Positions 1 to 5,532 of a DNA stretch of 5,532 bases are shown piece after piece. Position 1 is the stretch's first letter, and every line of letters begins with the position of its first letter. Below the pieces are notes generated by a model that had not been told where the DNA came from, did not search any database, and worked only from the letters and a program-made list of their open reading frames with translations. Source of the stretch: a virus. Lineage: Duplodnaviria; Heunggongvirae; Uroviricota; Caudoviricetes. The stretch lies in IMG/VR virus record IMGVR_UViG_2734482779_000001; one strand, given 5' to 3'. The position numbers and the translations under genes are program-made.

Positions 1-131
1 GTGGCGCATAGCACTGCCAGATGAATAACACATCCCCGTCAATACGGCCCTCGCTGTACGCTTACACCTGTAATCAGGTTTCCGCTTTTTCAGTTGGCTG
101 GTCGTTTAACCGACATAGTTAACCCATTAAT

Positions 132-419
132 CTAGTTGCCGGATGTTGGTGGATTTTCGCGTTTTAGTTGTTCATAAAAGTGCACAGCTTTAACCAATTC
201 TTCTGATGTAACCGGGACTGGTGAGGCAGTGAATAAGGCCTGAATTTGATAGTTCGGCCTGTCGTTACAATCCTCTTTTTTCGGTACATATTTCCAGTCA
301 CCAGACCACTACTTCCCCTGAAAGTCCGTAACGCCTTTTTTCACGTAGCGATATCGCCATGTCACTGGTTTTGCTTGCCCCGCCGTTTCATGCCCTTCCT
401 GATAATTAATCTCGCTCAT
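132..419 (-). pseudogene. Small leftward phage ORF interrupted by an in-frame TAG (36 codons, TAG at 309-311, then 58 sense codons to TAG at 132-134)
   Basis: Hand translation of the minus strand. ATG at 417-419 overlaps the TGA of the upstream small ORF (ATGA junction). The 58-codon continuation after the first TAG has no ATG and only a late in-frame GTG, so it is unlikely to be an independent gene. Not in the ORF track because each piece is under 60 aa. Confidence 0.3.
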
Positions 420-607
420 TCATCGCCCCACTCATCACAATATGCTTCGACCGGAGTTTTTCCCGCTTCATAGTCATCACGCTAGGATTCGACATCAGCA
501 GCACTTCCACCGCGTAACTCACCATAGTCCATTAATAGTTCATCCCGCTCTTCAAAACTGATGTTATATTTAGCTGAACAAAAATCAGCCACTTTGTTCT
601 TCCTCAT
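416..607 (-). pseudogene. Small leftward phage ORF interrupted by an in-frame TAG (41 codons, TAG at 482-484, then 21 sense codons to TGA at 416-418)
   Basis: Hand translation: MRKNKVADFCSAKYNISFEERDELLMDYGELRGGSAADVES, TAG, RDDYEAGKTPVEAYCDEWGDE, TGA. The terminal TGA forms an ATGA overlap with the start of the next ORF, typical of translational coupling. No convincing Shine-Dalgarno upstream. Confidence 0.3.
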
Positions 608-1029
608 CGTCTTTTATTTCGTGGTATGAGTAATTGCAGTAGTTAAAGAAAATTTCTTATGCTCCGTCATGAATTTCATCAGGTGTTGCGTCATCGTCCA
701 CTTCGAATACATCCTCAAAATCTCCACCAGCTATTCCCGTTTCAATAATAATTTTGAACTTTCGCATTTCACTACCGCCCTTTCGGGCGGCCTCCTGATG
801 TTCTGAGGGTGCAGAAATCCATCCGGTTAAGGATTAAGTTTTATTTACAGAACTGAATTTAATTATTCAGATATACGTATCTGTAACCTTACGAATCTAC
901 TCACTGGATGCCTCTTTCATAAAAATAATCCAGTGGGTTTTATCGTTTTTTCCCTGTTCGTTGACAGATAACAGGCTTTCTATCTGTCAGTGCCAGAATC
1001 TGGCTTACCGGTATTTGCGTTTCATTCCA

Positions 1030-1386
1030 TTAAAAAATCAGAACGCCGTGCGGCCTCAACACCCGAAAAGCTTCTTTAAATCTCTGTCGCAAATCATCAC
1101 GCCAGGCATCTTTATTCAGCCGTCCATATTTCTTTCCCATCCAGGCGTTATCACCAACACGCTCAAGATGCGGAGGGTCTAATACAACCATCGAAAAAGA
1201 TGCGTCTGCAAATGATAATGCACGAAAATCTGCGATAATGTCAGGGCTGATAATCAAGCGTCTCCCATTGCGTAATGTGTATCCTTCTTTTCTGATATCG
1301 CTAAATATCGCCCGTTCGTCAGACTTATCGAACCAGAACATGCGGCTGCCACAGCACATATCAAGAATGGTTGCCGGTGCACTCAC
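1030..1386 (-). CDS. Putative SAM-dependent methyltransferase-like protein, short (118 aa), possibly a C-terminally truncated remnant
   Basis: ORF track 1030..1386. Contains ILDMCCGS (glycine-rich motif I-like), VLDPPH (DPP[YFHW]-type catalytic motif) and RVLRPHGVLIF (LKPGG-like strand) in gamma-class order. Start codon is GTG at 1384-1386, overlapping the TGA of the upstream gene (GTGA). Only 118 aa, so a complete Rossmann fold is doubtful. Confidence 0.55.
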   Translation of the reverse strand: MSAPATILDMCCGSRMFWFDKSDERAIFSDIRKEGYTLRNGRRLIISPDIIADFRALSFADASFSMVVLDPPHLERVGDNAWMGKKYGRLNKDAWRDDLRQRFKEAFRVLRPHGVLIF

Positions 1387-1805
1387 TGCGCCACGTCCTG
1401 AAAATTACCCTGATAGAAAGCCAGTATGCGCTGCATAACTTCGCTCTTCCGGCACTCGCGACAGATTATGTTTAGGCGACTGTCGTAGCGACGTATTTCT
1501 CCGTCAGGTGATGACCAGATAAGGTCCGGATCAACCACAGCAGGTTTCTTCACCTTTGCCCTCGAGAGTTTTTTGCGGGCGTTTTGCCAGTCCTTACGCG
1601 CCTGTTCAGAGGGGAATAACCCGTAGCCGGAGTTGTATACATCGCCACTGGCTACCAGCTCTCTGGCAAGAACGCTCATCAGATATCTAGTCGCACCTGT
1701 TTTAGCTTCCAGTTGCCGTAACGTCTCACGGCCGCTCTGGCGCACGAGTTCCACCACCTGCCATTTAATTTTTTCCCGCTCTTCTTGTGTAAAAACTTTT
1801 GCCAC
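1383..1805 (-). CDS. Hypothetical phage protein, 140 aa
   Basis: ORF track 1383..1805. GTG start at 1803-1805 preceded by a strong Shine-Dalgarno (AAGGGGGA) at about 5 nt. Stop overlaps the start of the downstream methyltransferase-like ORF. I recognise no family. Confidence 0.7.
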   Translation of the reverse strand: MAKVFTQEEREKIKWQVVELVRQSGRETLRQLEAKTGATRYLMSVLARELVASGDVYNSGYGLFPSEQARKDWQNARKKLSRAKVKKPAVVDPDLIWSSPDGEIRRYDSRLNIICRECRKSEVMQRILAFYQGNFQDVAQ

Positions 1806-1845
1806 AAGTCCCCCTTAAAATTACCTCATGACCTGAAATCAACAC

Positions 1846-2811
1846 TTATCCTCTGAAACCAGGCGGAATTTCTGTATCCGGTTCAGAAATATGATTAACA
1901 CAACGCTGCACAGGTGAACGTCCCAGGCGGATGACCAGTTCGTCCCATTTTTCGCGGAGCTTTGACGGGCTCATGATGTTTTTTACCCAGAATGGATCTC
2001 GCTGAACCCGACCAAACATTTCGCAAATTTGTCTGTGGCTTCTGCCATCCAGCATCCGCATTGTGCGCACGTCATTGGCCCAGGCAGTCCAGTTAGGCTC
2101 TTTTGGTCGCATGATCTCGCCATCATCACTGGCTGCCTGTTCGTAGAGACCCACGATCCGCCCCCAGATCCACTGCGCACACGCCAAATCCTCCCTGCTA
2201 CCCCACTGGCGTTTTTTCGCACTAAACACAACCGCGTCGGAGTTCCGGGTTAAAAAATCCTGTTCAGTCGTCTGCGGGTCCGGTTGCGAAGCTTCCGGAC
2301 GAAAAGTGTTTTTATTCTCTGTAGTAATCTCTGTTGTATTCTCTGTAAGATCATCAGGCCATTTTGACCCGATGACATTGGGTCGTTTTGAACCAATGGA
2401 GCGTTTCATTTTGACCTCTTCCATCGTGTCATTTTGACCTGATGGAGCGGCGCATTTTGAACCGATGGATTCGCTCAATTTGCCACCATCTAAAAGCTCG
2501 CTCCCATAGTTGATCGTGTAGAAATTGGTCATATCGCGCTTTGATTTATTGAGCTTTTCACAACGCAAAAGCCCCAGCGTTTTCAGACTTGCAAACGCGC
2601 GCTTTAACGTTGACTCTGACCAGAATGGGAACTGTTCCAGCCATTGTTCCGTTGTGTTATAAATCCAGCGAACACCATCACATTCCATGCCGGAGTTGGT
2701 ATCTCTCAACCAGTAGTGCAGTTGTTGCAAAACAATGGCTTCGTTTAAGCCAATTTTCATTGCCAGCTGCGTGTTTATAACCAGTGGGCGTTCAGCAAAA
2801 AGAAGGCTCAT
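1846..2811 (-). CDS. Phage replication initiator / replisome organiser (lambda O-like), with origin iterons inside the gene
   Basis: ORF track gives 1846..2865, but the codon at 2863-2865 is TTG. The first ATG (2809-2811) has a GGATGGA Shine-Dalgarno about 6 nt upstream, so 2811 is the preferred start (321 aa). N-terminal region looks like a winged-helix replisome-organiser domain; the middle is a low-complexity linker with repeated IGSK encoded by the iteron DNA; a conserved-looking C-terminal domain follows. Position after the cro-like and second early genes matches lambdoid layout. Confidence 0.8.
   Translation of the reverse strand: MSLLFAERPLVINTQLAMKIGLNEAIVLQQLHYWLRDTNSGMECDGVRWIYNTTEQWLEQFPFWSESTLKRAFASLKTLGLLRCEKLNKSKRDMTNFYTINYGSELLDGGKLSESIGSKCAAPSGQNDTMEEVKMKRSIGSKRPNVIGSKWPDDLTENTTEITTENKNTFRPEASQPDPQTTEQDFLTRNSDAVVFSAKKRQWGSREDLACAQWIWGRIVGLYEQAASDDGEIMRPKEPNWTAWANDVRTMRMLDGRSHRQICEMFGRVQRDPFWVKNIMSPSKLREKWDELVIRLGRSPVQRCVNHISEPDTEIPPGFRG
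2360..2468. repeat. Five direct repeats (iterons) at about 23-bp spacing, putative phage origin of replication
   Basis: Copies starting 2360, 2384, 2407, 2430, 2453: CATTTTGACCCGATG, CGTTTTGAACCAATGG, CATTTTGACCT(cttccatcg), CATTTTGACCTGATGG, CATTTTGAACCGATGG. An AT-rich stretch with short direct repeats (ATTCTCTGTA) lies at 2300-2350, immediately downstream in gene orientation, as in lambda ori inside O. Confidence 0.6.
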
Positions 2812-3313
2812 AATTCCATCCAGCTTTTTGTTGGTATTGCTGTCGATACGCAAGCTTGAAAGCAATTGCTTTTTCTATAAGTTCGTCAGTTTCACGATCC
2901 ACTACGGCAGGATCAGCAAAAAGCAGTCCGGACTCCACCACATCGCCATATTCTTTGTTTAACCCGGCGATCATGCACGTGATGCTTTTTCCGTCAGTAA
3001 TTTCACGATACAACCTGAAATCACTAATCCGGATAGCCTCCATAATCGCAGGCACTAGCGCCGTGAACTTTTCACGCTTATCCCTGGTGTCGATAGCCTT
3101 CCAGCGTTCGAATATCTTCACTCGATTAACACCAAGCGCTCGCTGATCAACCGCGCCACCTTCATCTGTGACACGCTGAACATCGATGTTCGGGCGCTCT
3201 TTCAAAGCCCAGAATGCTTCAGTGATTAATATCGTCGCCTGCTCCTGTGTCATTCCTGGTCGACATATCCAGGCATCCAGAGCCTCACGAGCCTGTTCAG
3301 GAGTGATTTTCAT
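2792..3313 (-). CDS. Phage early protein, 173 aa, in the cII position; possibly YdaT-family
   Basis: ORF track 2792..3313. ATG at 3311-3313 overlaps the dicC stop by 17 nt, and its stop overlaps the replication initiator start. The YdaT-like call rests on gene position and general resemblance from memory, not on an alignment. Confidence 0.7.
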   Translation of the reverse strand: MKITPEQAREALDAWICRPGMTQEQATILITEAFWALKERPNIDVQRVTDEGGAVDQRALGVNRVKIFERWKAIDTRDKREKFTALVPAIMEAIRISDFRLYREITDGKSITCMIAGLNKEYGDVVESGLLFADPAVVDRETDELIEKAIAFKLAYRQQYQQKAGWNYEPSFC

Positions 3314-3527
3314 TGTTCAACCGCCCCGCCCGCTTCGTCTTACGATATTCATCATAAACTTTGGGATCATACTGAAGCTCCCCGCCAGATGCCTCCTGTA
3401 GACGCATCGCGCGACCTTCGGGAACTAAATCCCCTTTCCAGCTATAAAGCGAAGCCAAACGAATACCTGCTGCTTGTGCAAGTTTTGTTTTTGAACCGAA
3501 ATACAAAAGAGCGTCAGTTTTAAGCAT
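3297..3527 (-). CDS. dicC: DicC, cro-like repressor of the dicB division-inhibition operon (76 aa)
   Basis: ORF track 3297..3527. Translation MLKTDALLYFGSKTKLAQAAGIRLASLYSWKGDLVPEGRAMRLQEASGGELQYDPKVYDEYRKTKRAGRLNNENHS matches my recollection of E. coli K-12 DicC. AAGGTG Shine-Dalgarno about 8 nt upstream; divergent from dicA. Confidence 0.9.
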   Translation of the reverse strand: MLKTDALLYFGSKTKLAQAAGIRLASLYSWKGDLVPEGRAMRLQEASGGELQYDPKVYDEYRKTKRAGRLNNENHS

Positions 3528-3610
3528 TTAAAACACCTTTATTGTTAGTCATAACTAACAAGATAGATGTTAACAAAAACATAGTCAATACGATTTAGCA
3601 TTAGCTAACT
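3528..3610. promoter_or_regulatory. Divergent dicA-dicC control region with operator-like palindromes
   Basis: Perfect 20-bp palindrome TTGTTAGTCATAACTAACAA at 3542-3561 and 14-bp dyad TTAGCATTAGCTAA at 3595-3608, sharing the core TTAG(T/C)-N4-(A/G)CTAA. Additional short dyad ATGTT-N6-AACAT at 3568-3583. The 83-bp spacer between divergent start codons must carry both promoters. Confidence 0.6.
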
Positions 3611-4018
3611 ATGGAAACAAAAAATTTAACTATCGGCGAACGCATCAGGTATCGTCGGAAAAACCTCAAACACACCCAAAGGTCTCTTGCTAAAGCCCTG
3701 AAAATCTCCCATGTGTCTGTATCACAATGGGAACGGGGTGATAGTGAACCTACAGGGAAGAACCTTTTTGCCCTCAGCAAAGTATTGCAATGCTCACCAA
3801 CATGGATTCTATTTGGCGATGAAGACAAGCAACCAACACCACCTGTTGAGAAGCCAGTTGCCTTATCCCCCAAAGAACTAGAGCTCCTTGAGCTGTTTAA
3901 TGCACTGCCAGAATCAGAACAGGATACCCAGCTCGCCGAAATGCGAGCTCGAGTAAGAAACTTCAATAAACTCTTTGAAGAATTACTAAAAGCCCGTCAG
4001 CGGACAAATAAAAGATAA
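3611..4018 (+). CDS. dicA: DicA, XRE/HTH-family repressor of dicB operon (135 aa)
   Basis: ORF track 3611..4018. Translation (METKNLTIGERIRYRRKNLKHTQRSLAKALKISHVSVSQWERGD...) matches my recollection of K-12 DicA. HTH motif near the N-terminus. Confidence 0.93.
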   Translation: METKNLTIGERIRYRRKNLKHTQRSLAKALKISHVSVSQWERGDSEPTGKNLFALSKVLQCSPTWILFGDEDKQPTPPVEKPVALSPKELELLELFNALPESEQDTQLAEMRARVRNFNKLFEELLKARQRTNKR

Positions 4019-4078
4019 CATCATCAATGAGTTATCTTTTACCACATCAATTATGTTAGCTATAGCATACAAAATCAC

Positions 4079-4107
4079 TTGACCGATATGTTAGTCATGG
4101 CTAATCT
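4079..4107 (+). promoter_or_regulatory. Putative dicB-operon promoter with overlapping DicA operator-like dyad
   Basis: TTGACC (-35-like) at 4079-4084; TAAT-containing -10 candidates at 4100-4107; dyad TTAGTCATGGCTAA at 4091-4104 matches the operator core seen between dicA and dicC. Lies between dicA and ydfA, where the DicA-repressed dicB promoter is known to sit in K-12. Confidence 0.5.
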
Positions 4108-4184
4108 TGTTTGCATCAACACACCGCACGGTGTTCTCAGCAAACAGTTCCGCTACCCCAGCGTTAAGGGGAAATGAGGTCAGC

Positions 4185-4340
4185 ATGGATACTATCGATC
4201 TTGGCAACAACGAATCTCTGGTGTACGGCGTGTTTCCAAACCAGGACGGTACGTTCACCGCGATGACGTATACCAAAAGCAAAACGTTTAAAACCGAAAA
4301 TGGTGCCCGTCGCTGGCTGGAAAGAAACTCAGGTGAGTGA
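4185..4340 (+). CDS. ydfA: YdfA, Qin-type prophage small protein (51 aa)
   Basis: Internal ATG at 4185 within track ORF 4107..4340, preceded by GAGGT Shine-Dalgarno at 4176-4180. Product MDTIDLGNNESLVYGVFPNQDGTFTAMTYTKSKTFKTENGARRWLERNSGE, 51 aa, matching K-12 YdfA length and order. Confidence 0.85.
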   Translation: MDTIDLGNNESLVYGVFPNQDGTFTAMTYTKSKTFKTENGARRWLERNSGE

Positions 4341-4341
4341 T

Positions 4342-4470
4342 ATGGATTTCGACACAATCATGGAAAAGGCTTACGAAGAATACTTCGAAGGTCTTGCCGA
4401 CGGCGAAGAAGCTCTCAGCTTCAACGAATTTAAACAGGCGCTTTCCAGTTCGGCAAAATCTAACGGCTGA
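4342..4470 (+). CDS. ydfB: YdfB, Qin-type prophage small protein (42 aa)
   Basis: Not in the ORF track (under 60 aa). Hand translation MDFDTIMEKAYEEYFEGLADGEEALSFNEFKQALSSSAKSNG, TGA. AGGTGA Shine-Dalgarno upstream; starts 2 nt after the ydfA stop. Confidence 0.8.
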   Translation: MDFDTIMEKAYEEYFEGLADGEEALSFNEFKQALSSSAKSNG

Positions 4471-4499
4471 TAAGCGAAACAGCACCGCGAGGAATCAGT

Positions 4500-4718
4500 A
4501 TGCAGAAACGAGAACCCGTCATCATCGCGCCAGACTATACCGATGATGAACTTTATGAGTGGATGCGCCAGAAAATTAATGCAGCGCAGGATCTGAAATG
4601 GGCCAATGAAGCCAGGGCTAAGCAGGCTGAAAATCTGTCCGCTCTGGAGCAGGATATCACCAATCTGGAAAAAGCAGCGGCATTAAGCATTGCCAGAATG
4701 ATTACATACCCGCGTTAA
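4500..4718 (+). CDS. ydfC: YdfC, Qin-type prophage protein (72 aa)
   Basis: ORF track 4500..4718. GAGGA Shine-Dalgarno about 9 nt upstream. Length and position match K-12 YdfC. Confidence 0.85.
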   Translation: MQKREPVIIAPDYTDDELYEWMRQKINAAQDLKWANEARAKQAENLSALEQDITNLEKAAALSIARMITYPR

Positions 4719-5058
4719 TAGCTAACCAACGAAGCTAAGGTTGGTAATTAAGGAGTTCTCCACGGGTGAGGTGGAGTGCGTGCGCCGGACACGGGTGAGC
4801 ATCCGGCACTGACAGTTTACTGAAAGGATATTTCCCTGAAAAGTCAGACCATAACGCGAAAGCGCACGGTGAGGTAGCTGGTTCATAGATAGCCTGTCGT
4901 TAAATTTTCGTCGACCGTGCGCTTCCGGTTGTGGCAACCCGCGAAATGGTGCGGCGGTAAGTATGGCGGGGTTATTTCTTCCCCGTTGAGGACACCGGGT
5001 TGTCAGGTTGACCATACGCTTAAGTGACAACCCCGCTGCAACGCCCTCTGTTATCAAT

Positions 5059-5111
5059 TTTCTGGTGACGTTTGGCGGTATCAGTTTTACTCCGTGACTG
5101 CTCTGCCGCCC
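5059..5111 (+). ncRNA. dicF: DicF small regulatory RNA (53 nt), ftsZ-targeting division inhibitor, followed by T-run 5112-5116
   Basis: Sequence TTTCTGGTGACGTTTGGCGGTATCAGTTTTACTCCGTGACTGCTCTGCCGCCC followed by TTTTT matches my recollection of K-12 DicF. Located between ydfC and dicB as in the dicB operon. Confidence 0.85.
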
Positions 5112-5285
5112 TTTTTAAAGTGAATTTTGTGATGTGGTGAATGCGGCTGAGCGCACGCGGAACAGTTAAAACCAAAAACAGTGTTATGGGTGGATTCTCT
5201 GTATCCGGCGTTAATTGTTAACTGGTTAACGTCACCTGGAGGCACCAGGCACTGCATCACAAAATTCATTGTTGAGGACGCGATA

Positions 5286-5390
5286 ATGAAAACGTTATTA
5301 CCAAACGTTAATACGTCTGAAGGTTGTTTTGAAATTGGTGTCACTATCAGTAACCCAGTATTTACTGAAGATGCCGGCTTTGTTGAATAA
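5286..5390 (+). pseudogene. dicB: dicB disrupted by insertion: first 30 native codons (5286-5375) fused to 4 IS-derived codons, then stop
   Basis: ATG at 5286 with GAGGA Shine-Dalgarno. MKTLLPNVNTSEGCFEIGVTISNPVFTEDA matches the N-terminus of K-12 DicB (62 aa as I recall). From 5376 the sequence is the IS903 terminal inverted repeat, giving GFVE then TAA. Confidence 0.75.
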
Positions 5391-5532
5391 ATCGAACTTT
5401 TGCTGAGTTGAAGGATCAGATCACGTATCTTCCCGACAACGCAGACCGTTCCGTGGCAAAGCAAAAGTTCAAAATCACCAACTGGCCCACCTACAATAAA
5501 GCCCTCATCAACCGTGGCTCCATAACTTTCTG
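5376..5532 (+). mobile_element. Left end of an IS903-group insertion sequence (IS5 family), inserted in dicB; continues beyond the window
   Basis: GGCTTTGTTGAATAAATCG at 5376-5394 matches the IS903 terminal inverted repeat, and the next ~140 bp match the IS903/Tn903 end known from kanamycin cassettes, with several substitutions (a variant such as an IS903B/IS102-like copy). Right end and target duplication are outside the window. Confidence 0.85.
5453..5532 (+). CDS. IS903-family transposase, N-terminal fragment (start uncertain: GTG 5453 or TTG 5408)
   Basis: Frame open from 5387 to the window end encodes ...LPDNADRSVAKQKFKITNWPTYNKALINRGSITF, matching the IS903 transposase N-terminus as I recall it. 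No in-frame ATG in the window, so the start codon is uncertain. Confidence 0.5.
   Translation, partial: MAKQKFKITNWPTYNKALINRGSITF

Follow-up and report, generated by a model that had tools for sequence, protein, structure and literature searches.

In a Qin-like prophage of E. coli, the cell division inhibitor gene dicB is cut immediately after codon 30 by IS903B, an insertion sequence, and the small RNA DicF, encoded upstream in the same operon, is intact. We refer to the whole stretch of DNA that was analysed, 5,532 nucleotides in length, as the window. The host element is a defective lambdoid prophage, which adjoins rspAB in the closest complete genomes. We think it probable that the arrangement arose by a simple insertion of IS903B that truncated dicB and left DicF in place. 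This is a new instance of a known event, and its anatomy is ordinary: a gene of a cryptic prophage has been pseudogenised by a very common insertion sequence (IS). The features of the window are as follows.

1-65, no strand assigned: 65-nt terminus of an IS66-family element (ISEc8-like), 64/65 to the ISEc8 end in GPEC1446 (L006 3001-3065)
3297-3527, minus strand: dicC, Cro-like regulator, intact, 76 aa; protein identical to K-12 DicC, placed by K-12 annotation coordinates
3611-4018, plus strand: dicA, CI-like repressor of the dicBF operon, intact, 135 aa; K116R relative to K-12 in the compared translations
4185-4718, plus strand: ydfA (4185-4340), ydfB (4342-4470) and ydfC (4500-4718), with which the dicBF operon begins, from the ungapped K-12 alignment, annotation and open reading frames
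5060-5111, plus strand: DicF sRNA, intact; Rfam RF00039, 76.7 bits, E 3e-16, model positions 1-52 of 52
5286-5375, plus strand: dicB codons 1-30, the 5' remnant; no mismatch to K-12 dicB nucleotides 1-90, Pfam PF05358 profile positions 1-30 of 62
5286-5390, plus strand: fusion open reading frame (ORF) of 34 aa, DicB residues 1-30 followed by GFVE and TAA; from translation, also called on one Logan contig
5367-5375, no strand assigned: GAAGATGCC, the 9-bp stretch that simple transposition would have duplicated; single copy within the window
5376-5532, plus strand: left 157 nt of IS903B (IS5 family); 157/157 to the L002 copy, PGAP 'IS5-like element IS903B family transposase'
5376-5393, plus strand: 18-bp terminal inverted repeat (IRL), GGCTTTGTTGAATAAATC; found inverted at both ends of four complete 1,057-bp copies
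5453-5532, plus strand: start of the IS903B transposase gene, GTG at 5453 (307-aa version); CDS offsets carried over from L001 and L002

The junction between dicB and IS903B

Working from the letters alone, a first-pass annotation had proposed that dicB was cut after codon 30, that an IS inverted repeat began at 5376 and that a 34-aa fusion peptide stood in place of the 62-aa DicB. Alignment bore out all three points. The dicB ATG occupies 5286-5288 and the last base of codon 30 (GCC) is 5375. K-12 MG1655 and the window are identical base for base across 5150-5375 (100% identity), a segment that includes the 90 remaining nucleotides of dicB, and this identity ends exactly after codon 30. K-12 dicB then continues ATT AAC AAG... 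to complete a protein of 62 aa, whereas the window changes at 5376 to GGCTTTGTTGAATAAATCG..., the beginning of IS903B. The start of the 18-bp IRL thus coincides exactly with the loss of dicB homology.

Everything from 5376 to 5532 equals the first 157 nt of a complete 1,057-bp IS903B in E. coli Z1323CEC0004 (L002 6272-7328; match 6272-6428), which settles the IS903-group identity that had been put forward for checking by alignment. Thousands of plasmids, mostly of Klebsiella and Escherichia, carry copies with 100% identity to this end, many of them annotated 'IS5-like element IS903B family transposase'. Neither these matches nor those to dicB and DicF arose by chance. The window reaches IS position 157 only, and the right end of the element lies outside. 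Its transposase gene is oriented the same way as dicB. We placed the transposase start from two other copies (L001, IS start 6403 and CDS 6480; L002, IS start 6272 and CDS 6304); the start of the longer PGAP version would fall at 5408. The window holds the first 26 codons of the 307-aa version, too short a segment for a Pfam hit.

Translation of the interrupted frame yields MKTLLPNVNTSEGCFEIGVTISNPVFTEDA followed by GFVE, and the TAA at 5388-5390 lies within the IS inverted repeat. In the proposed mechanism, translation of dicB would run four codons into the repeat and then stop, and the C-terminal 32 residues would be missing. Against the Pfam DicB profile (PF05358), the 34-aa product aligns to positions 1-30 of 62 with 64.3 bits, and K-12 DicB aligns to positions 1-62 with 136.8 bits. 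Judged by this comparison, the product is a fragment of a DicB family member, below functional length.

Could the 34-aa frame instead represent a natural short variant of DicB that ends at codon 30? The frame is open and its product scores above the Pfam DicB threshold despite partial coverage, and nothing else speaks for such a variant. The Pfam match, however, stops at profile position 30 of 62, and the final four codons and the stop come from the IS903B inverted repeat. Every close relative continues INKRKQ..., with K-12, C10 and GPEC1446 doing so at the same nucleotide, and the 34-aa product was found on one contig among 153 billion gene positions. We give a natural short variant next to no probability and rejected it on the alignment, in which IS903B begins at 5376 and the relatives read on.

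A short contig with repeats at both ends is a typical setting for misjoins, and the junction might accordingly have been created in assembly, if a dicB contig was chimerically joined to an IS903B repeat from elsewhere in the genome. An exact look-up of the 34-aa peptide led to one Logan contig, from run SRR2239640, that represents this locus, spanning window positions 38-5404 and stopping after 29 nt of the IS; the run accession itself had no match in the literature. This independent assembly has the identical junction. Moreover, the break falls on the IS terminus to the base, which is the signature of transposition rather than of a random misjoin. An artefact is therefore highly improbable.

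We also surveyed how widely the junction is distributed. In 5,426 complete E. coli genomes, megablast with 5150-5532 as the query gave no single-piece match to the exact junction; three hits covered the full query, and in each of them IS903B was inserted at a different position. A degenerate pattern written for both the left junction and the predicted right one had no match in GTDB representative genomes, JGI metagenomes or IMG/VR. Absent from all these complete genomes and present in one sequencing run only, the insertion is a recent, strain-specific event; lineage specificity was a point that had been raised for comparison across strains.

On the minus strand, a mechanical ORF of 125 aa at 5087-5464 lies antisense to DicF and dicB and crosses the IS junction. 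Without the junction it would not exist, and it is almost certainly no gene.

DicF and the state of the prophage

DicF had been described as intact beside the broken dicB, and at the sequence level this holds. The Rfam match spans the full model, terminator-like 3' hairpin included, its 76.7 bits compare with a gathering score of 48, and all of its pairs are standard. K-12 and the window show no difference across 4978-5375, a stretch that covers DicF.

The genes dicC, dicA and ydfABC are intact as well. Between 3034 and 5375 the K-12 alignment (L003) is ungapped at 98.9% identity, with 25 substitutions and an offset of 851 nt. The gene order dicC-dicA-ydfABC-dicF-dicB is collinear with K-12, with the dicB remnant downstream of DicF in the DicA/DicC-controlled operon, and the reading frames of ydfA, ydfB and ydfC are open. 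The change at dicA codon 116 is a single SNP at 3957. DicA K116R is probably common to strain C10, because the C10 DicA accession also differs from that of K-12. The dicBF operon of the K-12 Qin prophage thus has the same order as that of the window, with DicF and the first 30 dicB codons identical; the K-12 dicB is whole, whereas that of the window is cut. The two prophages also differ upstream of dicC, where K-12 Qin has lost ydaT, a replication-gene homologue and DUF977, all of which the window prophage retains.

Published work places the determinants of DicF entirely upstream of dicB: RNase III and RNase E cuts set the DicF 5' ends, and a 1,146-nt ydfABC-dicF transcript terminates after dicF (PMC10448788). 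It is reasonable to infer that DicF production would continue upon derepression of the operon. A promoter and terminator consensus scan of 3200-5532 returned counts not above those of shuffled sequence and picked up neither dicBp nor an outward promoter.

At its left end, the window opens with the ISEc8-like terminus, which ends ...GTACGCTTAC. Homology to the uninterrupted prophage of C10 starts at position 66, within a gene that the C10 annotation lists as a pseudogene with a frameshift. Both ends of the window, a short-read contig, are thus breaks at IS repeats, and this prophage of the strain has at least two IS insertions. The prophage is degrading.

Within 600-1386, the genes upstream of DUF977 are decayed. 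A 118-aa methyltransferase ORF (1030-1386) and small ORFs at ~600-770 correspond to C10 pseudogenes with frameshifts or internal stops (SAM-dependent methyltransferase, DUF7167).

Insertion or rearrangement beyond the window

The proposed event is a recent transposition of the 1,057-bp IS903B, a member of the IS5 family, between dicB codons 30 and 31. The 9-bp duplication, the rest of dicB and ydfD would then lie beyond the IS. A simple insertion would put GAAGATGCC-ATTAACAAGAGA... past the right end of IS903B, and the predicted right junction would consist of the right inverted repeat (IS903B-IRR), GAAGATGCC and ATTAACAAG... in that order. The right end of IS903B reads ...CTGATTTATTCAACAAAGCC, and the flank expected of a simple insertion would read GAAGATGCCATTAACAAGAGAAAACAAG.... 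The first-pass annotation had named GAAGATGCC as the expected target duplication and located it at 5367-5375, where we find it.

Several observations argue for a simple insertion. Each of the four complete IS903B copies that we inspected in related prophages, one of them in dicB itself after codon 45, is 1,057 bp long and is a simple insertion with a perfect 9-bp duplication, and a 9-bp target site duplication has been reported for this element (PMC13618097). In addition, strain C10 and the window are 99.98% identical across 66-5375, with one mismatch in 5,310 bases, and C10 carries dicB, ydfD, an exonuclease gene, xis and int uninterrupted up to the rspAB junction. This near-identity to an intact prophage indicates that the event is very recent and that its background is otherwise unaltered.

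We weighed these observations against an IS-bounded rearrangement. The IS may have deleted DNA next to it, or two IS903B copies may have recombined to give a deletion or inversion. In that event the 3' half of dicB would have been lost or relocated, perhaps together with ydfD, the exonuclease gene, xis and int. The window stops inside the IS and leaves the other side unconstrained, and a contig that is IS-bounded at both ends suggests an IS-rich genome. Precedents exist in LCP22S3_I2 and DAX4, in which IS3-bounded truncations of dicB come with loss of adjacent DNA, and strains with IS903B bursts offer 15-39 matching places per chromosome as substrates for recombination. On the other hand, the perfect 9-bp duplications of all four complete copies inspected in such prophages speak against a rearrangement, as does a flank that is essentially identical to an intact prophage, which is what a fresh insertion predicts. 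We consider a rearrangement unlikely and continue to favour simple insertion. Under both, dicB is disrupted and DicF is kept.

We also looked for traces of the predicted right junction among proteins. The right-junction ORF, composed of IRR, GAAGATGCC and dicB codons 31-62, is in frame and has no start codon. By exact look-up, the 10 predicted contig-edge products of this junction (two dicB alleles by five start points) were absent from the protein collection.

Consequences and related IS disruptions

DicB is a MinC/ZipA-dependent division inhibitor and the main resistance determinant against phages that use ManYZ (PMC6832061). With half of its 62 residues absent, loss of function is very likely, and we infer that this dicB copy is almost certainly null for both MinC/ZipA-dependent division inhibition and ManYZ-linked phage exclusion. 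Our search of the literature found no published data on DicB truncations. The effect may extend to the lysis gene ydfD, whose ATG overlaps the dicB stop codon and which therefore probably depends on dicB translation; if the remaining operon lies past the IS, ydfD expression is probably reduced. Polar or outward-promoter effects of the insertion, which the first-pass annotation raised as possible, are speculative. Loss of the protein arm applies to this dicB copy only, as E. coli genomes hold up to six dicB-like places. Such sequence occurs in 4,198 of the 5,426 complete genomes, and the strain may hold further copies of its own.

The closest parallel comes from two Korean chicken isolates, Z1323CEC0004 (NZ_CP148483.1) and Z1323CEC0002 (NZ_CP148498.1), in which IS903B, oriented as in the window, interrupts the dicB of a related DicF/dicB prophage after codon 45. 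Their copy (L002 6272-7328) is complete at 1,057 bp and is flanked by a perfect duplication of 9 bp, AAAATATGC; the remaining part of dicB and then ydfD follow downstream. It is independent of the insertion in the window, lying 45 bp further downstream in a prophage that is 96.6% identical to the window and located next to tRNA-Ser/mtfA.

The swine isolate Z1324SEC0014 (NZ_CM135183.1) carries three complete IS903B copies within 6 kb of the immunity/dicBF region of a related prophage (L001 1267-2323, 3022-4078 and 6403-7459), each with its own 9-bp duplication. One lies in ydfD and one at the 3' end of a Cro-like gene. On this chromosome, 39 places match the query of dicB upstream region plus IS903B end, and the copies look like a burst.

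Other insertion sequences also disrupt dicB. In the ST131 strain NS30, dicB is interrupted by an IS3-family element (PMC12632120). NS30, DAX4 and LCP22S3_I2 thus share with the window the natural inactivation of a prophage dicB by an IS, though by an element of the IS3 family instead of IS903B. The 5' end of dicB is missing next to IS3 copies in DAX4 (L007). In LCP22S3_I2 (L008), an IS3 element connects the final 43 bp of dicB with the tail-fibre assembly gene tfaQ, and the strain has lost the whole immunity region at this locus together with DicF; the window, by contrast, keeps DicF and the regulators. Gene inactivation by IS903B itself is well documented, as in mgrB::IS903B. In Klebsiella pneumoniae, a cirA::IS903B disruption carries a 9-bp duplication (PMC13618097). 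Knockouts of the cirA type resemble the window in that the same element, with its identical 157-nt end and 18-bp inverted repeat, truncates a coding sequence, typically with a 9-bp target duplication. Their targets are resistance-related chromosomal genes, whereas the target in the window is a toxin gene of a cryptic prophage in E. coli.

Within ~250 bp of dicB-ydfD, we count three independent IS903B events: after dicB codon 30 in the window, after codon 45 in Z1323CEC0002 and Z1323CEC0004, and in ydfD in Z1324SEC0014. The transposase points in the operon direction in 3/3, an outcome with a chance probability of 0.25. These sense-orientation hits might be a sign that the target is a preferred one or that selection acts against the protein toxins. 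A more far-reaching proposal is that IS903B hits in dicB-ydfD are recurrent and selected, removing the toxic DicB and YdfD while keeping DicF, with the transposase placed under read-through from dicBp. If true, this read-through, controlled by DicA/Rem, would couple prophage derepression to transposition. We regard the proposal as very unlikely: the chromosomes of these strains each contain 15-39 places that match the query, mostly IS903B copies, and just two such events occur among 5,426 genomes.

For annotation, the 34-aa ORF becomes a dicB pseudogene and the contig ends become breaks at IS repeats. The window adds one more natural dicB null allele that leaves DicF in place, and its importance beyond strain annotation is small. 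Nonetheless, such a strain could serve as a natural genotype in which the sRNA arm of the dicBF operon is separated from the protein arm, and it provides an example of how a toxin gene of a cryptic prophage decays through IS activity.
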